Assembly (NCBI GenBank): GCA_021800165.1
Contig: JAJYZF010000004.1
Coordinates: 3,296-67,295, forward strand
Length of the DNA stretch: 64,000 nt
Source: Planctomycetota bacterium
Lineage (GTDB): Bacteria; Planctomycetota; Phycisphaerae; WQYP01
Direction of reading: 5' to 3'
Translations under genes and position numbers: made by a program
The notes under the pieces: model-generated
The model's database searches: none
Seen by the model: only the letters and a program-made list of their open reading frames with translations
What the model was told of the DNA's origin: nothing
Shown here: in pieces, positions 5,368 through 38,522 of the stretch
How the letters are laid out: each line of letters begins with the position of its first letter
Position numbering within the stretch: the stretch's first letter is position 1

Positions 5368-6057
5368 TCAGATAACCAATTGCTCCAACCCGGTCAGACC
5401 AAGCATTTCCTCCACATAGAAAGGTTCGCCATAGGCTCGCCGAATAGTGCCGCCAAAATAAGCCGCTATCTGACGCACATACGCAATGGTTTCCCCGGCA
5501 TGGGCGGCATCGCGTCCGGTAAAAAATTGCGATTGATAGCAGGACAGCGCGGCAATTTTAGTCTCCATCACGTCCGAAATATCCAGGCAAAACCGGGCCG
5601 GAAAATTGATGCGCAAATGCGTGCAAAAATAATAAATCAGCCGCGGCGGATAAAACGGCTCGCCGGGAATATCACTGCGTGTGAGTTTCGCATCAAATCG
5701 GGCATCTTCACAAATGCGGGTGACCGCCAGATGATCCGGGTGGGCATCGTGCGCATAAGGAATAAAGAGAATATCCGGTCGGTGCTGCCGATAAATAGCC
5801 GCGACACGGTGTCGTGCCTCCAGCGAATGTATGACTTGACGATTTTTAAACCCCGCCTGCTGCCGCGACACGCCCAGAGCGCTGGCCGCGGCGTGAGCCT
5901 CCCTGGCTCGCAACTCCGGCGATCCAAACGGGGTAGGCTCTCCATCGGTCATATCCAGAAGGACCACGCGATGTCCAGCCTGGCGCAACCGCACAATCGT
6001 CCCCCCCATCGCCAACTCCTGATCATCCGGATGCGGCCCAACCACCAGTATGTTCAT
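5368..6057 (-). CDS. PIG-L/LmbE family N-acetylglucosaminyl deacetylase (BshB-like)
   Basis: MNILVVGPHPDDQELAMGGT...HPDH motif typical of LmbE/PIG-L deacetylases. Confidence 0.8.
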   Translation of the reverse strand: MNILVVGPHPDDQELAMGGTIVRLRQAGHRVVLLDMTDGEPTPFGSPELRAREAHAAASALGVSRQQAGFKNRQVIHSLEARHRVAAIYRQHRPDILFIPYAHDAHPDHLAVTRICEDARFDAKLTRSDIPGEPFYPPRLIYYFCTHLRINFPARFCLDISDVMETKIAALSCYQSQFFTGRDAAHAGETIAYVRQIAAYFGGTIRRAYGEPFYVEEMLGLTGLEQLVI

Positions 6058-29747: not shown

Positions 29748-30205
29748 GCGAAGACCCCGTGTTCCAATCGGCCAATCAGATTCTCGACTTCGCGTGCTCC
29801 AACGTCCGTCGCGGCGAAGTCCAGCGGGGTTTCTCCACCCAACCCCGATTGCCGGGTCTGTATCCACTTTCTCGCGGCTGCAACATCCCCCTCAAACAGA
29901 TCCACAGCCTGATCAAATATGGCCGATGCCCGCCACACCCGGTCGGATTCATCAGGTTGCAGTTTTCCTTCGCTTTGCCGCCGGGTCAGAGTACGTTGCG
30001 GGATGGCAACAAAGCGTGAGATTTCGGCCCACGGCAGTTGGGTCGCCTTCTGAAATCCGGCGAGTTTCTTGAACGGAAACCCGGCCCGGACCAACCGCAC
30101 GATCTTGACCGAATCGTTCGTGCCAATCCCAAGCCTGCGGGAGGCAACCCTCCTCTTTGCGCCCTTGATCTTGTACTTTCTCGCATGAGCCTCAGTAGTC
30201 GTCAT
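29744..30205 (-). CDS. Xre/MbcA/ParS-type antitoxin (DUF2384 C-terminal domain)
   Basis: AAGGAG RBS. C-terminal RASAIFDQAVDLFEGDVAAARKWIQTRQSGLGGETPLD is typical of RES-partner antitoxins. Confidence 0.7.
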   Translation of the reverse strand: MTTTEAHARKYKIKGAKRRVASRRLGIGTNDSVKIVRLVRAGFPFKKLAGFQKATQLPWAEISRFVAIPQRTLTRRQSEGKLQPDESDRVWRASAIFDQAVDLFEGDVAAARKWIQTRQSGLGGETPLDFAATDVGAREVENLIGRLEHGVFA

Positions 30206-30810
30206 AACAACTCCTTATTTGGCCAAATGGCACTATTGTACGCGCCAACTGGCTGGTAAACAAGGTATCGGTCTGACTTCCATTCCACCTTGACTGCCAC
30301 TCTCGCGTGTCCACCCGGCGACAAGCATGCCCGCACCTGACCTCAAGGCCACACCATTTTTGATAGGTGACTTAAGATCCAAGGTTTTCAAATCCTTCAG
30401 CAAAGACGCGTTTTCAAGATGGTCCGCATCGCCAAGGAGCCGCCTCTCGCGCCGTTCCCGAACCCAACGGCCCCGGCTTACGCAAAACGCCGCAAAGCCG
30501 GTTGGCCAGTTGCAGAGCAGCAAGCCTCCGTTCTCGGGGCGGCATTTTCCACACGAGCCAGCTCTTTCCCGGGCGTTTGAGAAATAGTTTGCGTCACCAG
30601 GCGGGGATTAACTTGCCGGTCGTTTTGTGGCCTTCGGAGATCATTTCAAACAGGAGCGGCCTCATTTTCCGGGTGCGGCGGTAACAGCGGAGCCAGGGGC
30701 GGTAATCCGGTGGTCAGGCCCTCGTTGCAGGGAAGGCCGAGCGGATGGCCGGGTTTTCGCCCATTGCGTGGTATGGGGCAAAATTGTAGACACCCAGCGA
30801 ATAGCTCCGG

Positions 30811-31254
30811 TCAGACCCATCGCGTGATCTTGTTTCCTTCCCGGTCAATAAAGTTGCCGGTCACGATCATGATGAGGTCGCAGATTATCCAGAGACCGAA
30901 ACCACCAAGGGTCAAAGGCATAAGTAGCCCTGTTCCAACCTTCCCCACGTAAAACCGGTGGACACCCAATATCCCCAGAAACCAACAGAGGAGTAGGACT
31001 GGAAGAATTCGCTCTGGGGTTCCAAGTTGAGCACCGCATTTTGGACAGGCGAGCGCGGTTGGGTGTATTTGGGCACCGCAGCCTGAGCATCGCCAGAGCC
31101 TTGAGGCCACTATGGCCTCGCGTTGGGCTGCCTGGCGGCTGAGCCGGTCGTGGCAGTTGGAGCAGACGATTGTATTTTGCCAGACCATCGCTTGTTCGTC
31201 TTTCCCCATTTGACGGGAACAGCATTCGCACTTTTCCACGGACTCTGTCGACAT
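30811..31254 (-). CDS. Zinc-ribbon / TM2-domain membrane protein
   Basis: Three CxxC pairs in the N-terminus. C-terminal TM2 domain (GVHRFYVGKVGTGLL...GGFGLWIICDLIMI). AAAGGA RBS. Confidence 0.6.
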   Translation of the reverse strand: MSTESVEKCECCSRQMGKDEQAMVWQNTIVCSNCHDRLSRQAAQREAIVASRLWRCSGCGAQIHPTALACPKCGAQLGTPERILPVLLLCWFLGILGVHRFYVGKVGTGLLMPLTLGGFGLWIICDLIMIVTGNFIDREGNKITRWV

Positions 31255-31690
31255 GTTAAAGTTCCTTTTCGTGGGGGCCGGGCGACGGGCTTACGAGTTT
31301 CCATATATTTTAGCCTACCGAATGGTTGCCGCAAGCTTGCGACGTAAATGCCCACATTGGCCCCTGTTGGCAGGGCCGTAAGGAATAGGTCTCTAATAAG
31401 TTCGGCGGTCAATGGGCGATTGAGTGTGAAAGGCTCCTATGAAATCGCTACACTGACTCGTACTTGGCTGGAGATACTCAGAGGGCGCTCGTCACCAGTA
31501 ATGGCGCGGACGATTCCCTCTTGGGGGAACGTAGCCTGCAGCCAGTTGGAAGGGAGAACATGATTATTTGGACGGTTTGCCCCAGGGGTGGGCTGCGGGT
31601 CTGAAAGAGCGTGTTTGGTACCAATCGGATCCCCGCGGTTCTGACGAGCCGGAACGAAGGAAGGCCCAGCGCATGCAGGTGTTGCATCTG

Positions 31691-33538
31691 TTACGGCACC
31701 GAGGACGGGATATTGCGGAGTTCACTTGCGGCTTGCTCCCGGAGATTATCCGGGGCATCACCCATTTTGAGTATATCACGATAACGGGCGGCAGCATCGG
31801 CGTATTCACAAGAAAGAGCGAGCAAACGCGATTGCGCCAAGATTGCCTTGGCCCTCTGATCGGTTGGTGCCTCCGCAGTCGCGGCCAGCGCGGCGTATTC
31901 CTGGATGGCCACCCGAAATCGCCCCTGCTCCGCATGGACTGCAGCACGGTTGTATTGTGCGTGGGCCCTTTGCGTGGCGGTTGAACCGGCGAGTTGAGCG
32001 ACGCGTTCGTAATCATCAATCTCGAGGTCAGGACGGCCCCGCATACCGTGTGTTATGGCGCGACTGATCAGAGCGTCGGCTTTCATTTCGGAGCTGCTTT
32101 CGGGTGCCGCCAGGATCGTATTAAAGTCCTCAATGGCGAAGTCGCACAATCCTGCGCTCCGGTAGGCGCGAGCTCTGCCGAATAGTGCGCTCAGGGCAAG
32201 GCTAGGCGGGACACCATCAATTTGCATGGCCTCGTTGAAATCGCTTATCGCGTCATGTGCTTGGCCGCAGCGTAGCCGGACGATACCGCGATTCCTTATC
32301 GCGTGCGCGGTGGTCTGCGGGCGCGCGCCCCGGACGCCAATTGCCAGGGTATAGAAATCGCAGGCCCAATTCGCGTAGCCGGAATTGCTGTAGCCGAGGC
32401 CAGCTTGAAGGTAATATTCGCCCCACCTTTCCGAGAGATCGAGGGACGAGAACAGCAGAAGCGACTCGGCGAAAACGACGACTGGGTGGCGATCATATTC
32501 CGGCGGGTCGGCCGCCGGCTGCGGCGAGACGGTTCCGCCAACTCGGGCGCCGATGATGAGGCCGTTCGTGCATCCCGCAGGCATCGCCGCTCGCGTGGCG
32601 GGCTCGCTGGGTAAGGTCGCGGCCCCACGGGCCAAATGGGCTTGATCTTCGTCGAGCAGTCGTTCCGGTGCCATTGCTGGTGGATCGTCGGCTACGGTGC
32701 CCCAGTCCTTTATGGGAACGCTGGTTTCGGCGCTCGACCTGCCGCCCAAGGTGCGCGTGGCCGCCGGGAATCCAAAAAGGGACGTGCAGCGGTTGGGGTT
32801 TCGGCCCACGATAATGGCCACAGAGTAGTCTCCGATTTCGTTGATTACCGTGTTGCCGCAAAAATTCGATTGGTCGCCAAGATTACCTTCCTGTATAGGA
32901 AAATGGATGCCGTTCCACCAGAGGTCCGCCTGTATCAAGCAGAAGTGGGATCCGAAAAATTTTGCTTGAAATGCCGTCTGTCCATTTCGGGCTATTGTGA
33001 ACATCCCGCCGTGGTAAACAATGTCATCGACGTCTGAGGTGCGGTAGGACATCTCATTATTTTGAATGATGAGCAACGGATTATCCATCTCGTCGTATAT
33101 TTTTAGACTTAAAAGCCAGTGATCTGATTCCCACCGTAGGCTGATAACGGAATTGCCGTCCATAGCCAGTATTATCACGTAACCGTCCTGGCGGGCGCGC
33201 ATGGAGAAGCTGTTGCTGGCAACGGAGATGCAGCACTCACGGGAGTGGGTTAGCCAAACTGTATCGGGAGTGCTAAGCGAATTCTGCCGGCGTTTGTTGA
33301 AGGGGGTAGAATTGGCCGCCCCGATCTCTTTCCGCGAAAAAATCCCGTTTGTTGTCTTTCTGTGGCATCCATCGCAGAGCATTGTGATATCATTTTCGAC
33401 GTGGCCCGTTTTGCTGTTGTAGCCATTAATATGGTGGTATTCGCAAATAGGCCTGCCGCACAGTACGCAGCCATAGCCACATCTTTCCCGCACTCGACGT
33501 TTTATTTCTGCGGGAATTTGCGGGCGATTCTGCGCCAT
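31691..33538 (-). CDS. Large HNH-nuclease / TPR-repeat protein (candidate defence effector)
   Basis: N-terminal HNH motif RCGYGCVLCGRPICEYHHINGYNSKTGHVENDITMLCDGCHRK. A central region of about 330 aa has no recognisable family. C-terminal TPR-like repeats run from about residue 430 to the end. [10 protein letters not shown] before the ATG at 33536-33538. Confidence 0.6.
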   Translation of the reverse strand: MAQNRPQIPAEIKRRVRERCGYGCVLCGRPICEYHHINGYNSKTGHVENDITMLCDGCHRKTTNGIFSRKEIGAANSTPFNKRRQNSLSTPDTVWLTHSRECCISVASNSFSMRARQDGYVIILAMDGNSVISLRWESDHWLLSLKIYDEMDNPLLIIQNNEMSYRTSDVDDIVYHGGMFTIARNGQTAFQAKFFGSHFCLIQADLWWNGIHFPIQEGNLGDQSNFCGNTVINEIGDYSVAIIVGRNPNRCTSLFGFPAATRTLGGRSSAETSVPIKDWGTVADDPPAMAPERLLDEDQAHLARGAATLPSEPATRAAMPAGCTNGLIIGARVGGTVSPQPAADPPEYDRHPVVVFAESLLLFSSLDLSERWGEYYLQAGLGYSNSGYANWACDFYTLAIGVRGARPQTTAHAIRNRGIVRLRCGQAHDAISDFNEAMQIDGVPPSLALSALFGRARAYRSAGLCDFAIEDFNTILAAPESSSEMKADALISRAITHGMRGRPDLEIDDYERVAQLAGSTATQRAHAQYNRAAVHAEQGRFRVAIQEYAALAATAEAPTDQRAKAILAQSRLLALSCEYADAAARYRDILKMGDAPDNLREQAASELRNIPSSVP

Positions 33539-33787
33539 TTGCCCCTCCAAGGAGGATAGCCGTTGAGGGCAGTCAGGCCGTACACAACAACGGTACGTCC
33601 GAGCGCAAAGAATCCTAAGCTTTTCGTTATTGCCACGCAAGCAGAACTGCGGAAGATATTACATTTCCTTCAGGGGCGCGGTCCAGCGGGTTACGGAGGC
33701 TCAGAACAGTGGGGGCGAAGCGGGATGCCTCTAGGGTGGTTGTTGGGTGTACCGTAAATATGAGATTCCCGCCGGTAATTTAGCCCT

Positions 33788-33816
33788 TTCCAATCCCTCC
33801 CACGCTATTCTTATCT
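33788..33816 (+). repeat. Direct repeat DR2 (att-like), pairs with 29120-29145
   Basis: See DR1. Confidence 0.5.
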
Positions 33817-34269
33817 CAAAGGGACTTGCGGCAACGTGGCGGGATCAATACCGCAGACTCATCGTCTGGAGGCTCTGCTTCTGACCAAAGAATCAGACAG
33901 GACCATTGCCCAGGTGTTGCACCTCAATCCCCGTCTGGTCCGGGCCTATCGCAAGATGTTTTTTGACGTTGGTGTGCCGCCACCCGTGTTGCTGCGGGTC
34001 CGGCCGCCGCGCGTCCAAACTCCCACCAGGCTGGCCGTCGCGGTATCGCAAGTTCGCTTTTACAGGCCTAAACTCAAAGCCGTGGCTTGGCCGCCAAAAG
34101 GCAAAAGCGGCCGGGGATTTTCCATGAGCCGGGGCTGGGCGGCGGGCTACCGGAGCGACCGAACCCCTCACATTTGGTACAATCCAAGGGGTTCAGGCCT
34201 CCGGAGGGGGTAGAACCTATTGGGTTGGTCGAAACGGATTAGTGAACAAATACCGAAGGCTCCAAAAAA

Positions 34270-35415
34270 ATGGCGAAAGTTGCGGTAAAAGAAAGTATTC
34301 TTCGCTGGGCCGTGGAACGTTCCAAGCGGTCGCCGGATGCGTTTTTGCCTAAATTTCCACACCTGCGCGATTGGGAAGAAGGCATCGCCATGCCGACCCT
34401 GCACCAGCTTGAGCAATTGGCCACGGCCACGCACACTCCGCTCGGCTATTTCTTTCTTGAGAAACCTCCCACAGAGGCGCTCCCAATTCCACATTTTCGC
34501 ACGCTCGTGGAGGAAACGCCAAACGATCCCAGCCCGGATCTTCTGGAAACCGTTTATTCGATGCAACGTCGCCAGGATTGGATGCGGGAATTTCTTATTG
34601 CCGAAAGCCACGCACCACTGCCATTCGTGGGTCGCGCAAAGCCCTCAGATTCCCCGGAGGTTCTCGCCCGGACGCTAAGAACAATCCTTGGATTTGCCGA
34701 TGGCTGGGCGGTCACCGCACCAAACTGGGCCGCAGCCCTGCGTAAGCTTCAACATGCCAGCGAACAAGCCGGCATCCTCGTCGCGGTAAGCGGCATTGTG
34801 GGCAACAACACACGCCGAAAACTTGATCCGGCGGAATTCAGGGGATTTGTTTTGGTGGACGACTACGCGCCGCTGGTATTCCTGAACGGGGCCGACGGGA
34901 AGGCGGCACAGATGTTCACCCTGGCACACGAACTGGCACATGTGCTCTTCGGCAGCAGCGCCGCCTTTGATTTGCGGCAAATGGCCCCGGCGCAGGGCGG
35001 GATCGAACGTGCATGCAACCGACTGGCGGCTGAGTTCCTTGTGCCGGCCGAACAACTCAGGGTGGCGTGGTTGCAGACCCGAAGCCAAGACGACCCCTGG
35101 CAATTTCTGGCACGCCAATTCAAAGTCAGCGAAATTGTTGCCGCACGGCGCGCCTTGGACCTGAAGCTGATCGGCCATGAAACGTTCCGCGAATTCTATG
35201 AAACCTACATCAGAATGGAAAGAAAAAAGCCCAAGGGCGACGGCGGCGATTTTTATCTAACCCAGAGCTCCCGCCTCGGAGGCCTCTTCGGCACCACCGT
35301 TGCACGAGCGGTTCGGGAAGGCAGGCTGCTCTATACCGAAGCTTATGAACTCACCGGCATGCGGGGGAAGACATTTGATAATTTTATAAGCCACCTGCCG
35401 GAACACAGTGCGTGA
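34270..35415 (+). CDS. XRE-HTH / ImmA-IrrE family zinc metallopeptidase (COG2856)
   Basis: N-terminal HTH (TLHQLEQLATATHTPLGYFF). HEXXH motif (TLAHELAHVLFG) in an ImmA/IrrE-like domain. Confidence 0.75.
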   Translation: MAKVAVKESILRWAVERSKRSPDAFLPKFPHLRDWEEGIAMPTLHQLEQLATATHTPLGYFFLEKPPTEALPIPHFRTLVEETPNDPSPDLLETVYSMQRRQDWMREFLIAESHAPLPFVGRAKPSDSPEVLARTLRTILGFADGWAVTAPNWAAALRKLQHASEQAGILVAVSGIVGNNTRRKLDPAEFRGFVLVDDYAPLVFLNGADGKAAQMFTLAHELAHVLFGSSAAFDLRQMAPAQGGIERACNRLAAEFLVPAEQLRVAWLQTRSQDDPWQFLARQFKVSEIVAARRALDLKLIGHETFREFYETYIRMERKKPKGDGGDFYLTQSSRLGGLFGTTVARAVREGRLLYTEAYELTGMRGKTFDNFISHLPEHSA

Positions 35416-35429
35416 AGGTAGTTCAAATT

Positions 35430-35915
35430 ATGTATCTCCTGGACGCGAATGTCTTTATTGAGGCCGCGAAACGCTATTATGCCTTCGACTTGGTGCCGCA
35501 ATTTTGGACGCGGCTGATTGAACAGGAGAAAGCCGGGCGATTATGCAGCATCGACCGCATCAGGGACGAACTGCGGAGGGGCAAAGATAGGCTGGCCCAA
35601 TGGGCCTCCACGGACTTTTCCGAGGCTTTCCGGAACTCGGCGGAGGCGAAGACCATCAAGGCTTACAGCAAAGTGATGAATTGGGTCCAAGAACAACCGC
35701 AATTGATTCCCGCCGCGAAAGATGAATTCGCCCGTTGCGCCGATGGATGGCTGGTCGCCTACGCGATTGCGCACGCATGTACAGTAGTGACGCACGAGGT
35801 ATTTGATGCAAACACCAGGCGCAGGGTGAAAATTCCCAATGTTTGCAGGGCGTTCGACATTCAGTACGTCGATACCTACGCGATGCTGCGACGCCTGGGC
35901 ATTCAACTGGTCTGA
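35430..35915 (+). CDS. DUF4411-family PIN-like protein (partner of COG2856)
   Basis: MYLLDANVFIEAAKRYY... D-rich PIN-like core. Translationally coupled to the ImmA gene (4-nt overlap if the upstream GTG is used). ATG at 35430 preferred. Confidence 0.7.
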   Translation: MYLLDANVFIEAAKRYYAFDLVPQFWTRLIEQEKAGRLCSIDRIRDELRRGKDRLAQWASTDFSEAFRNSAEAKTIKAYSKVMNWVQEQPQLIPAAKDEFARCADGWLVAYAIAHACTVVTHEVFDANTRRRVKIPNVCRAFDIQYVDTYAMLRRLGIQLV

Positions 35916-35949
35916 CCGCCCTACTCCGGACATTAAATTGAGAATGAAA

Positions 35950-37350
35950 TTTGCCGAGTATGTCTGCGGCCCGCAAAAAATGGCCACAACTCATCCCCAT
36001 CCGGACCGTCCCCACGCCCATTCCCCCGCGCCCACGCTCTGCGTACCTCTGCGTCCGGAGTTTATCCCGATGTCTATCGGGACGGTGAGCCCCCCCCGCG
36101 GCCGCAGCCGCCTTTACTCCCGACTCCCGACTCCCGTCTCCTGTCTCCTGACTCCTAACTCCCAAATCCTAACTCCTGCGGCCACAGCCGCTATTACCCC
36201 CCCCCATACCCCGCCTATCACTCAACCAAGCGGAACTCCCGATGGAAGGCTCATTCCCGATGGCTATCGGGACGCAGCCAAGCCTCGTTCCGCCTGGCCG
36301 CAGGCCCTTAAACCGCCTGCGATCATTGACAAGTAAATACGTGCCTCGCCACAGCGGCCCCGTCGAAGCCACAGGCGTGCACCACACCAAAATAAGGAAT
36401 TCGACTCATGCCCATGCTGCGCCTGAAACAAGCACAAAACCGACCACTAACCCGGAAAATTAAAAATGTTTGGACACTTTGGCCATCTTGGCCATCTTAC
36501 CCCAAAACCCCAACAAAACCGCCCATTTTTCAACCTGTCCAAGATGGCCAACCCCCAAAAACTTGGCCACCTTGGCCATCTTACCCGTCGCCGTCCTCCC
36601 GTTGAGGCATGGATGCCGAAATCCTCGATGTGGCAGGAGCCAAGCATCGGGAAGGCATGGATGCCGAAATCCTCGATGTGGCAGGAGCCACGCATCGGGA
36701 ACTCCTGACTCCTAACTCCCGTCGCGGCATGGACGCCGAAATCATCGATGCTGGAGGACCGGCGTATCGGGACCTCCCAACTCCTAACTCCTAACTCCTT
36801 ACCAAAAAAAACGTGTTGATCTTGTCGATCTTGATAATCTTGCCCAAAAATCCAACGCAGTGCCCCGTGTCCCTTCGTGTCCGATATTTATCCCGTCGTC
36901 ATTTAATCTGTGTAAGGCGTTTATCCCGAAGTCCATCGGGATGGATCCCCCTGTCCGCGCTCCGTGAACCTTTGTGTCCATTGTGGTAAAAAAAACGCCA
37001 TCCTTCTCCGTTCTTCGCGCCTTCGTCACTTCGTGTTTAACCCGTCGTCGCGCCCCCGTTAAGGCACGGATGCCGAAATCCCGATGTGGCAGGAGCCAAA
37101 CATCGGGACTGAAACCTGACCGCTTCCCCGCGTCCCCTGCGGTAAAAAATCGCCGCAGCTCTGCCGACCGCAGCCCTCCACCCGCCCGAGGGTACCGCCA
37201 CACATTCTGCCAAGCGCGGAAGCGGTGTGCTTGACAGAAAGTCCCATCCGCGACGCCCGGCACGATGCCCGCGGCAAAAAGGCGGAAGCGGGCGGTTGCC
37301 GCAAAATCTAATCGCACCCCCGCCCGAACTAAAAACCTCTGCCGCTTGCC
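35950..37350. repeat. 1.4-kb repeat-dense noncoding region upstream of tRNA-Lys
   Basis: About 48-bp tandem units GGCATGGATGCCGAAATCCTCGATGTGGCAGGAGCC(A/C)(A/G)GCATCGGGAA at 36606, 36654, a degenerate one at 36727 and a partial copy at about 37061. ACTCCTAACTCC-type tracts at 36120-36180, 36697-36727 and 36770-36800. TTGGCCATCTT direct and inverted copies at 36469-36590. CCCGATG-N-ATCGGGAC hairpins at 36065, 36255 and 36925. C8 and C9 tracts at 36090-36097 and 36197-36205. No credible ORF. Confidence 0.6.
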
Positions 37351-37400
37351 AAATCCGCTGCCCGCCTTAGAATTATAAACTGCACTCGCGCGGGGGCAAT

Positions 37401-37473
37401 GAGGCCGTAGCTCAGCTGGTAGAGCAACAGACTTTTAATCTGTGGGTCCTGGGTTCGATCCCCAGCGGCCTCA
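37401..37473 (+). tRNA. tRNA-Lys (anticodon UUU)
   Basis: GAGGCCGTAGCTCAGCTGGTAGAGCAACAGACTTTTAATCTGTGGGTCCTGGGTTCGATCCCCAGCGGCCTCA. Cloverleaf folds with the anticodon loop CTTTTAA. CCA is not encoded. Confidence 0.9.
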
Positions 37474-37532
37474 TTTGCCCGCCCAAGTAGGATCCGCCAC
37501 CGGCCAAGCGGCACCGCAAACGAAATATCATC

Positions 37533-38522
37533 ATGAGAAAGCATCATCCACTAACCGACCTGAGCACTTATATCGCCGCCCGCTGGGCGGCGATGATGCT
37601 GGGCTTTTTTCCAGTAAACGCCAACCTGCGCACGGCCAAAGCATTTGGATCCATGCTGTGGACCTTGGATCAGCGGCACCGGAATCTGGCCATCGAACAT
37701 GTTTCGCGCAGTTTGCCGGAACTTTCGCCCCAGCATGCGAGCCTGGTCGCCCTGCGGTCCATGCAGCATTTTTGCCAACTCGGCATCGATGTCATGTTCA
37801 CCACCCGCACCATCAACGTGCAGCGATGGCATCAATATGTGCATTTTCAGGAAAATCTTCGCCAGACCATCCGGATCACCATGGAAAATCGCGGAGCGAT
37901 TTTGCTCACCGGCCATTACGGCAACTGGGAAGTGCTGGGGTACACCATGGCCACGCTGGGGCTGCGCAGCTATTCGGTGGCCCGTCCCATTGATAATCCG
38001 TATATCGACACCTGGCTGCTGGGCGTGCGGCAGCGCAAGGGACAAATCATCTTGTCCAAACGCGGCGTCACCACCACCGCCCAGGAAGTGCTGGAAAATA
38101 AGGGAATTCTGGGATTCATCGCGGATCAAAATGCCGGGCCTAAGGGAATGTTTGTACCTTTTTTTGGACGCCTGGCCAGTACGTATAAAAGTATCGGCCT
38201 GCTGGCCATCCAGCATCGGGTTCCCGTGATTGTCGGCTGTGCCCGGCGGCGCGGCGACCGTTTTGAGTTTGATATTGACATTGCGGATATCATTGAGCCG
38301 CAGGACTGGAGCCATCAGCCGGATGAACTTCGCTACATCACCCAGCGTTACACGCTGGCGATAGAAAAGATGGTGCGCCAAGATCCCACCCAATATCTGT
38401 GGATTCACCGGAGATGGAAAACCCGGCCCAAAGGGGAAACCACGGCCGATGGCCCACCGCCATCACCCGACTCCGCCTCTGTGGTTACGCCGCATTCCGC
38501 GGCTGCGGATCCACCACTATAG
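37533..38522 (+). CDS. Lipid A biosynthesis (Kdo2-lipid IVA) acyltransferase, LpxL/HtrB family
   Basis: HYGNWE motif, N-terminal membrane anchor, LPLAT fold length. Confidence 0.7.
   Translation: MRKHHPLTDLSTYIAARWAAMMLGFFPVNANLRTAKAFGSMLWTLDQRHRNLAIEHVSRSLPELSPQHASLVALRSMQHFCQLGIDVMFTTRTINVQRWHQYVHFQENLRQTIRITMENRGAILLTGHYGNWEVLGYTMATLGLRSYSVARPIDNPYIDTWLLGVRQRKGQIILSKRGVTTTAQEVLENKGILGFIADQNAGPKGMFVPFFGRLASTYKSIGLLAIQHRVPVIVGCARRRGDRFEFDIDIADIIEPQDWSHQPDELRYITQRYTLAIEKMVRQDPTQYLWIHRRWKTRPKGETTADGPPPSPDSASVVTPHSAAADPPL

Follow-up and report, generated by a model that had tools for sequence, protein, structure and literature searches.

The 64-kb window that we analyzed (64,000 nucleotides of contig JAJYZF010000004.1, from a member of the Planctomycetota) contains a 1.48-kb noncoding gap at positions 35916 to 37399, to which we assigned no strand, between a DUF4411 gene (35412-35915) and a tRNA-Lys(UUU) gene (37400-37474). 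By Pfam, the DUF4411 gene is paired with an ImmA/IrrE M78 gene (34270-35415), and the tRNA gene, called by ARAGORN and matched by Rfam at 74.2 bits, has its own sigma-70-like promoter (TTGCCA-16-TAGAAT in a promoter scan), the two together occupying 37346 to 37474 on the plus strand. The plus strand of the gap is C-rich, with a GC skew of approximately -0.2 to -0.34 across most of 35800 to 37400. A csrA homologue is encoded at 28612 to 28896 on the minus strand, 7.7 kb from an array of repeat units in the gap. An initial annotation had described these tandem units and their GGA-loop hairpins and had proposed that they form a sponge RNA of the CsrB/Rsm type. We find instead that the gap is probably a mosaic of a lineage-specific, noncoding interspersed repeat family of Phycisphaerae-type Planctomycetota, similar in kind to BOX, BIME, and MIRU repeats.

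The unit at the center of this family is 48 to 55 nt long in the gap, where four plus-strand copies lie at 36598 to 37108, each predicted to form a pair of hairpins whose loops contain GGA. When units were folded singly, these hairpins were GGCA-UGGA-UGCC and (U)GGC-AGGA-GCC(A), the latter nested in a CGAUG/CAUCG stem. A covariance model of the unit, R1, whose construction is given below, returned five significant copies in the 64-kb window, four on the plus strand and one on the minus strand. Unit 1 (36598-36652; 80.2 bits, E = 3.6e-21) is made up of the leader CCCGTTGA, hairpin 1 (GGCA-UGGA-UGCC), a GAAA linker, and hairpin 2 (UCC(U)CGAUG / UGGC-AGGA-GCCA / CAUCGGGA), as read from the fold of the single unit. 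It is directly abutted by unit 2 (36653-36700; 62.7 bits), with the 48-nt period also reported by Tandem Repeats Finder (36605-36701, 2.0 copies, 97% matches, score 187), and a Tandem Repeats Finder row with a 72-nt period carries the repeat on to 36791. Unit 3 (36718-36772; 60.1 bits) is diverged, with 82% identity to unit 2, and has the stem of hairpin 2 altered to CUGG/CCGG and the AGGA loop kept. Unit 4 (37055-37108; 79.1 bits) stands isolated, and unit 5 (21605-21646, minus strand; 31.8 bits, E = 2.6e-07) is an insertion variant with an extra UCCCGACGCAUCGGGA hairpin; its BLAST match to 37051-37126 spans 21568 to 21650, at 77% over 83 nt. The initial annotation had missed both of these copies. 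A repeat search of the window placed unit copies at 36606, 36654, and 36726, with families D3 and D4 adding a copy near 37063-37082, and the sequence GGCATGGATGCCGAAATC was found five times in 64 kb with up to three mismatches, compared to 0.09 occurrences expected. Six GGA loops fall within 175 nt (three units, 36598-36772), in agreement with the earlier count of at least six in 200 nt, and eight loops from four units fall within 510 nt. The paired GGA loops of one unit are approximately 25 nt apart, with approximately 23 nt to the next unit.

Tracts with a 7-nt period accompany the units. The heptad ACTCCTAACTCC, with up to two mismatches, occurs 12 times in the window compared to 1.85 times expected, and 11 of these occurrences are inside the gap region. 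The first array, about nine plus-strand repeats of ACTCCYR at 36116 to 36177, was detected by Tandem Repeats Finder at periods 7 and 14 and by pattern counts, and the hairpins GCGGCCGCAGCCGC (36098-36111) and GCGGCCACAGCCGC (36178-36191) lie on either side of it. The same two methods placed further plus-strand arrays after unit 2 (36700-36719) and after unit 3 (36774-36799); at period 7, Tandem Repeats Finder reported these two intervals together with 36116-36163 and 36145-36177. C homopolymers of 8 (36090-36097) and 9 (36197-36205) nt adjoin the first array and are potential slippage sites. Nine TCC triplets, each a minus-strand GGA, were counted in 36116 to 36177, matching the nine GGA triplets previously placed within 60 nt at 36120-36180. 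Heptads were found beside the units in every lineage, with lineage-specific sequences (CTGATCG/CTGAAAG, CAACGAC, CTGTAAC/CCGTCAC, or CCCGTAA in relatives), and the heptads CTGATCG, CAACGAC, CTGTAAC, and CCCGTAA have GGA on neither strand. Since the heptads are lineage specific, the minus-strand GGAGUUAGGAGU tracts to which the initial annotation drew attention, while present here, are peculiar to this genome. We also considered internal antisense pairing between CTCCTG in the heptads and its complement CAGGAG in the loops and rejected it: such pairs are absent from the minimum-free-energy fold, and other lineages have different heptads.

The rest of the gap is likewise built of modules that recur elsewhere, which had also escaped the initial annotation. 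By BLAST against related loci, most of 36022 to 37149 can be aligned to repeats at other planctomycetotal loci, and each of the segments 36022-36077, 36178-36367, 36356-36592, and 37004-37149 matches several unrelated loci at 72 to 91%. Module S (36022-36100, plus strand; repeat families D6 and I1/I2) is a hairpin containing TCTGCGTCCGGAGTTTATCCCGATGTCTATCGGGAC, is 82 to 91% identical to sequences at loci L011, L013, L044, L046, and L056, and has a second copy at 36907-36959 and a related palindrome at 36248-36272. Module P (36178-36367, plus strand; alignment A3), which contains TTGACAAGTAAATACGTGCC, matches L013 at 87% over 190 nt and L046 at 89%; unit arrays follow it directly in other genomes, but in the window no array is present at that position. 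Module N (36356-36592, plus strand) is C/A-rich and noncoding and is 88 to 91% identical over 226 to 237 nt to L013, L044, and L056. Its 9-mers, TTGGCCATC, are located at 36470-36498 and 36562-36582, with one inverted copy at 36536-36551. An A-run followed by a 9-nt-periodic TTGNNNATC tract (TTGTCGATC, TTGATAATC) at 36800-36850 on the plus strand (repeat family D5) resembles this 9-mer part of module N, and a similar tract is found in L036. The 9-nt-periodic TTGGCCATC and TTGNNNATC tracts (36470-36582 and 36814-36845) include two direct, one inverted, and two direct copies within module N, an arrangement that is kept in the copies of another genome, and they could be protein-binding sites. Module D (37004-37149, plus strand; repeat families D7 and D8) consists of TTTAACCCGTCGTCGC and CTGAAACCTGACCGCTTCCCCGCGTCCCCTGCGGTAAAAAA on either side of unit 4 and matches L013 and L011 at 72 to 77% over 145 to 169 nt. 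In the genome MAS4.bin39, the modules of the gap occur in a different order, with the unit array between modules P and N, and module copies at different loci of that genome are 94 to 98% identical to one another.

We found no Pfam match for any of the open reading frames (ORFs), up to 172 amino acids long, that overlap the gap. In module N, substitutions in the plus-strand ORF are spread 13/9/7 over the three codon positions, without codon-position bias, and the minus-strand "MAKMAK" ORF is interrupted by stops in other copies, one of which is frameshifted. We therefore rejected a coding function for the gap, in line with the earlier statement that no ORF explains this region. The public annotation of the same contig (L001) has an 80-amino-acid gene at 36466 to 36708 on the plus strand that overlaps module N and units 1 and 2; this gene lacks a Pfam match, and the call is probably spurious because the composition is G-poor and stop-poor. 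Contigs of several public assemblies end within the gap or shortly downstream of it.

The distribution of the family was analyzed with a gapped unit pattern, which was run against a collection with a single genome for each prokaryotic species. This pattern matched 52 stretches of the species-representative genomes, with the true matches, often in tandem, concentrated in a few metagenome-assembled genomes of Planctomycetota/Phycisphaerae (MAS4.bin39, 12 contigs; SKS5.bin63, 7 contigs; BP7.bin26; KM4311-08; and KM4364-03), while the remaining matches looked like chance or coding sequence. A looser regular expression that did not require GGA identified 53 units in these loci. From 38 distinct units (alignment A1) and a hand-drawn structure we built covariance model R1; RNAalifold on a MAFFT alignment gave hairpin 1 only, because hairpin 2 was misregistered, and so the hand-drawn structure and realignment to the covariance model were used instead. 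R1 found 60 copies in 24 of the 26 sources searched, all from Planctomycetota/Phycisphaerae. The arrays contain 1 to 5 units, exclusively head to tail with a period of 46 to 51 nt, and the number of units varies among loci and among strains. All copies examined are intergenic, and their neighbors are unrelated housekeeping genes, including those for an aldo-keto reductase, an RNA methyltransferase, LacI, aspartokinase, DUF4416, and an M24 peptidase, as well as carA, thiC, hemE, rpsO-pnp, and scpB. Thus, this is a multicopy repeat family dispersed between genes of unrelated function, and a widespread satellite, which the initial annotation had set against its own proposal, lies closer to these data than does a sponge gene. 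The genes beside the arrays have no common functional theme, which led us to reject the idea of a regulon.

In a scan of metagenomes, most matches were due to chance or to coding sequence, and about 15 to 20 loci were true family members; GCCGAAATCCTCGATCTGCTGCAGCACCGGATCGGG, one motif that kept recurring, is probably coding. In the metagenomes, more distant members of the skeleton (GCCGAAAUCC-CGAU...AUCGGGA) lack GGA in one or both loops and have AAGA, GAAG, or GCA in its place (L079, L068, L103, and L143). A phage origin was also considered and rejected, as viral contigs yielded a single match, which we took for chance. At two loci we noted additional repeats beside the units. In L047, the region ahead of rpsO-pnp (approximately 5480-5540, minus strand) carries GGACATTTTAACTTTGG twice in direct orientation, immediately downstream of the unit array and just upstream of a TTGACA box and rpsO, and these copies could be an operator pair. 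In L079 (9030-9160), a single unit has an identical 22-nt sequence, CTGTAACCCGTCACCTGTAACC, on both sides, which may represent heptad tracts or a long insertion duplication.

Within the set of 60 copies, 89% of the cells in the alignment pair, and 9 of the 13 base pairs have double changes; the observed pairing values were reached by none of 500 shuffles, and slid controls pair at only 17 to 47%. Thus, the tandem units of about 48 nt with two GGA-loop hairpins that were initially described are borne out by Tandem Repeats Finder, the folds of single units, compensatory stem changes, and 53 distinct copies. In loop 1, GGA is invariant in 53 of 53 distinct copies, while the preceding base is variable or absent and the following base is variable; loop 2 is AGGA in 39 of 53. 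The inner stem of hairpin 2 varies around a constant AGGA loop, both in this set (UGGC/GCCA, CGAC/GUCG, CGAU/GUCG, GGGU/GCC, and CUGG/CCAG) and in metagenomic relatives (CCGC/GCGG or AUGAGGC/GCCUCAU). The outer stem of hairpin 2, UCCCGAUG/CAUCGGGA, is conserved in sequence and not just in pairing, and the same outer stem is found in module S and in the relatives that lack GGA. Most copies have CCCGTTGA or CCCGTTAA as the leader, and CGTC is present in only a minority, such as CCCGTCAA and CCCGTCGC. Wobble pairs in the stems are nearly equal in number for the two strands (19 G.U and 18 A.C), a result that does not prove that the GGA strand acts as RNA. On the unit strand, the 200-nt flanks contain more C than G at 29 of 33 and 28 of 32 loci (approximately 88%), with a mean skew of about -0.17, so that strand asymmetry of the flanks is a strand-specific property of the family. 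By crude ORF calls, the unit and its upstream gene share a strand in 12 of 21 cases.

Comparison with a sister species and with other strains indicated that the tRNA-Lys locus is not special for the repeats. Homologues of the lipid A acyltransferase encoded downstream of tRNA-Lys place the organism in the Phycisphaerae. In the sister species (L182 and L184; LpxL 85% identical), an AraC-family gene is followed after 31 nt by tRNA-Lys and then by lpxL, nucleotide homology with the window (BLAST to L182) starts only at 37339, at the tRNA promoter, and R1 had no match in 13 kb of this locus. The mosaic at tRNA-Lys is thus absent from the sister species. An alignment with L004, another assembly from the same population as the window, shows two heptads (GCTGATCGCTGATCG) in place of unit 4. 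A tRNA-linked element was rejected, since a tRNA gene of any kind was present within the fetched locus (up to 8 kb) at only 3 of 23 array loci, in differing arrangements. In L183, another assembly of the sister species, the sequence ahead of lpxL (approximately 700-790) retains just the 3' part of tRNA-Lys (GGGTTCGATCCCCAGCGGCCTCA), joined to unrelated DNA with the look of an att-type junction, and we infer from this junction that tRNA-Lys is an integration hotspot in the lineage. A remnant att site was rejected for the window itself, from which a second copy of the tRNA-Lys 3' end is absent.

The proposal of a dedicated CsrB/RsmZ-like small RNA (sRNA) gene, in which a single transcript of 36598 to 37108 would titrate the CsrA encoded 7.7 kb away, draws on the eight one-strand GGA loops in 510 nt and on the presence of csrA in the same window. 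The csrA identification itself held up: the protein of 94 amino acids matches Pfam CsrA at E = 8.6e-19, reads MLVLTVR...VPVLREKV with L2, L4, R7, V42, and R44 kept, and has an AAGGAG ribosome-binding site 8 nt ahead of its ATG. The array resembles CsrB and CsrC, as well as RsmX, RsmY, and RsmZ, in having multiple GGA motifs in short hairpin loops on one strand, and it resembles CsrB in the loop CAGGAUG, which equals the CsrB repeat heptamer, and in a spacing compatible with bridging by a CsrA dimer. However, those sponges come from genes of one or few copies that have a promoter and terminator of their own and are conserved at fixed loci in Gammaproteobacteria, in contrast to the dozens of dispersed copies at a nonconserved locus seen here. 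Rfam 15 returned only tRNA for the whole window at the gathering threshold, and the Csr/Rsm families and TwoAYGGAY gave no match on 35700 to 37600 at E values up to 10, so we rejected a known RNA family. The initial annotation had suggested looking for a promoter and an intrinsic terminator on the array strand; a consensus scan, which covered sigma-70-type sites and is therefore a weak negative, found no plus-strand promoter for the array other than that of tRNA-Lys and no plus-strand terminator within the gap. It had also suggested looking for the same array beside csrA-like genes in relatives, and a tblastn search with this CsrA and Escherichia coli CsrA found no csrA near the arrays in approximately 170 fetched loci. 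With the same units at dozens of other loci, the mosaic absent from the sister species, and csrA lying in a toxin-antitoxin-rich accessory stretch and unlinked to arrays elsewhere, we consider a sponge gene tied to tRNA-Lys and csrA very improbable.

The core module of the repeat family is 46 to 56 nt long, with the leader CCCGTTGA, hairpin 1 as GGC[A-N-GGA-U]GCC, the GAAA linker, and a hairpin 2 made of an 8-bp outer stem (UCC(U)CGAUG/CAUCGGGA), a 3- to 4-bp inner stem, and an AGGA tetraloop, and with G-poor 7-nt-periodic tracts and modules S, P, N, and D as flanks. If the gap is a mosaic of such interspersed repeats, the units would spread and expand as DNA, through unequal recombination or slippage within arrays and through some transposition or recombination route between loci, and would not form an independent sRNA gene. 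They may be maintained as hairpins that are specific to one strand and function once transcribed by read-through, with protein docking, or transcript-end or insulating structures in a C-rich, G-poor context, as possible roles. Several observations weigh against an explanation by repeat spread alone. In 17 of 23 cases (again by crude ORF calls), the unit and the gene downstream of it share a strand, unit cores are approximately 85 to 90% identical compared to 73% for the sole coding segment shared by the window and SKS5.bin63, which indicates constraint or horizontal spread, and the conservation of GGA in the two loops is above what would be expected of junk. Together, loop conservation, core identity, and orientation suggest a selected RNA-level function that a "selfish repeat" fails to explain. 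In addition, the arrays examined revealed neither a mobilizing enzyme nor terminal inverted repeats or target-site duplications, and, since the copies are paralogues, the covariation statistics overstate their independence. The qualitative picture of variable stems around a fixed GGA is clear despite this paralogy, and the GGA loops look selected, as GGA persists between covarying stems and neither loop is of a stable tetraloop type.

The conserved GGA loops would make CsrA the most plausible ligand, which is a separate and less likely claim than the repeat mosaic itself. The CsrB repeat heptamer is CAGGA(U/C/A)G, and loops of the CAGGAUG and (C)AGGA(G) types are the classic CsrA/RsmA hairpin-loop motifs of CsrB and of the consensus obtained by SELEX. 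In the units, loop 1 reads CAGGAUG, CAUGGAUG, or CACGGAUG, and loop 2 reads (C)AGGA(G). The likeness to CsrA-binding hairpins that was pointed out in the initial annotation is thus supported as a structural reading, the match of loop 1 to the CsrB heptamer makes CsrA a reasonable candidate ligand, and a main module that folds into two CsrA-type hairpins may bind it. One version of such a function is that units within untranslated regions (UTRs) or intergenic read-through RNA bind CsrA dimers through their paired GGA loops, so that the dispersed arrays act as a distributed sponge or bring CsrA control to neighboring genes. The constancy of GGA while the stems vary (UGGC/GCCA, CGAC/GUCG, CUGG/CCAG, CCGC/GCGG, and AUGAGGC/GCCUCAU) is consistent with this version, as are UGGA and AGGA loops that fall outside the thermodynamically favored tetraloop classes, a genomic CsrA with intact RNA-binding residues and no fliW adjoining its gene, strand-specific G-poor flanks that would let the hairpins fold freely, and the precedent of TwoAYGGAY, a pair of GGA hairpins predicted to bind CsrA (PMC4333381). 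It is countered by the lack of csrA linkage in every fetched locus, the mixed functions of the neighboring genes, units that are usually not over a ribosome-binding site, the distant skeleton members without GGA in one or both loops, and a wobble count that leaves the GGA strand unproven as RNA. The sequence-conserved outer stem, which could equally be a recognition site at the DNA level or for a protein, argues against a universal role for CsrA. On balance, CsrA docking is unlikely as an account of the family, and the broader proposition, that selection has shaped dispersed, tandemly amplifiable intergenic repeats of the Phycisphaerae to present CsrA-binding GGA hairpins in pairs on G-poor RNA, as a genome-wide network of CsrA docking or titration, is equally unlikely.

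A function at the level of DNA is less probable still. Here, hairpins in single-stranded DNA (ssDNA) would be the sites of an HUH/Y1 transposase, as in REP/RAYT systems, or of another recombinase, or the 9-mers and palindromes would be iterons, with GGA incidental. The initial annotation had offered protein-binding iterons or decayed mobile-element ends as its own alternative; the latter lies closer to the evidence, and the former is retained within this DNA-level account. The sharing of the outer stem with module S and with GGA-less relatives fits such an element, as do near-identical copies at unrelated loci, the presence or absence of units between strains, and the lack of strand preference in the wobble test. 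However, it leaves the invariant loop GGA beside variable neighboring positions unexplained, no consistent GTAG or CGTC tag was found, and no transposase was present among the 20 flanking genes examined at approximately 20 arrays, nor were terminal inverted repeats or target duplications seen there. In addition, the units are arranged only head to tail, while REP families favor inverted dimers (PMC3733652).

The family can also be compared with several other known elements. BOX elements of Streptococcus pneumoniae (boxA-boxBn-boxC) and mycobacterial MIRUs are modular, noncoding intergenic repeats present in many copies that form stable hairpins; their middle unit of approximately 45 to 53 nt varies in tandem copy number, and they have no coding capacity or obvious dedicated transposase. 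The family described here is alike in its unit of approximately 45 to 55 nt, variable unit number, flanking modules, and many loci (a leader, 1 to 5 units, and a trailer or heptads). This likeness is one of kind, as sequences were not compared, homology is not expected, and no membership is claimed. The family differs from BOX, BIME, and MIRU repeats in its exclusively head-to-tail two-hairpin units, heptad flanks, and strand-asymmetric C-rich setting, as well as in the conserved GGA loops and in belonging to a different phylum from BOX and MIRU. REPs are single 20- to 40-bp palindromes with a GTAG or CGTC tag that occur at high copy number in intergenic mosaics and are often thought to act as RNA hairpins, and head-to-tail dimers are rare among them (PMC3733652). 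The repeats here resemble REP/BIME elements as short, conserved, multicopy stem-loops in intergenic mosaics with other motifs, but they differ in having two hairpins, and no RAYT was found among the 20 flanking genes examined; neither the tag nor the dimer orientation agrees with REP membership. The TwoAYGGAY RNA motif (RF01731) has paired GGA hairpins and was reported from Clostridia (PMC4333381). The units share with it two adjacent hairpins and, in hairpin 1, an AYGGAY-type loop (A[U/C]GGAU), but they do not match its model, loop 2 is AGGA on a nested stem, and TwoAYGGAY is not reported as a dispersed tandem repeat. The cyanobacterial STRR heptamers are intergenic tandem heptamers. TAACTGA heptamer repeats, also intergenic and of unknown function, occur in Beggiatoaceae, Cyanobacteria, and Bacteroidetes (PMC4679880). 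Like both, the heptads here are tandem 7-nt intergenic repeats, often mixed with other heptamers, that cause assembly breaks; unlike them, they read ACTCCYR, vary by lineage, and form an accessory module beside hairpin units.

If the gap is only a repeat mosaic, it exemplifies an undescribed interspersed family, absent from Rfam 15, that fragments Phycisphaerae metagenome assemblies, yields spurious gene calls, and marks variable genome regions, including the tRNA-Lys integration hotspot. Known control of CsrA is through antagonism by the FliW protein and through the sponge sRNAs of Gammaproteobacteria. Were the GGA loops to bind CsrA, distributed high-affinity sites carried on repeats would be a different architecture for a global posttranscriptional regulator and would give interspersed repeats a concrete function; this would be a Csr antagonist or targeting system outside the Proteobacteria, without a dedicated sponge gene.

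We also noted features of the DNA between and within the two repeat-rich gaps of the window. The stretch from 22184 to 35915 is rich in toxin-antitoxin and defense-like genes, encoding PIN/VapC (22184-22639) with a small upstream partner ORF, DUF4238, DUF3800, an HNH protein, CsrA, RES/Xre, a TM2/zinc-ribbon protein, a tetratricopeptide repeat (TPR) protein, and the ImmA/IrrE-DUF4411 pair. It has no synteny with the sister species, and neither an integrase nor fliW was found in it; it resembles an accessory island adjoining tRNA-Lys, with csrA inside. The second gap, of approximately 1.5 kb at about 20700 to 22180, houses unit 5, and its ORFs lack Pfam support. This gap also contains degenerate unit fragments in both orientations (for example, at 21150-21200 and 21258-21345) and CCCGA...TCGGG palindromes. 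At 21730 to 21764, TTTTCTT follows a near-perfect inverted repeat of 16 nt, AAAAGTGATAGTGCCG/CGACACCATCACTTTT, in a terminator-like arrangement on the plus strand that is unrelated to the repeat family.

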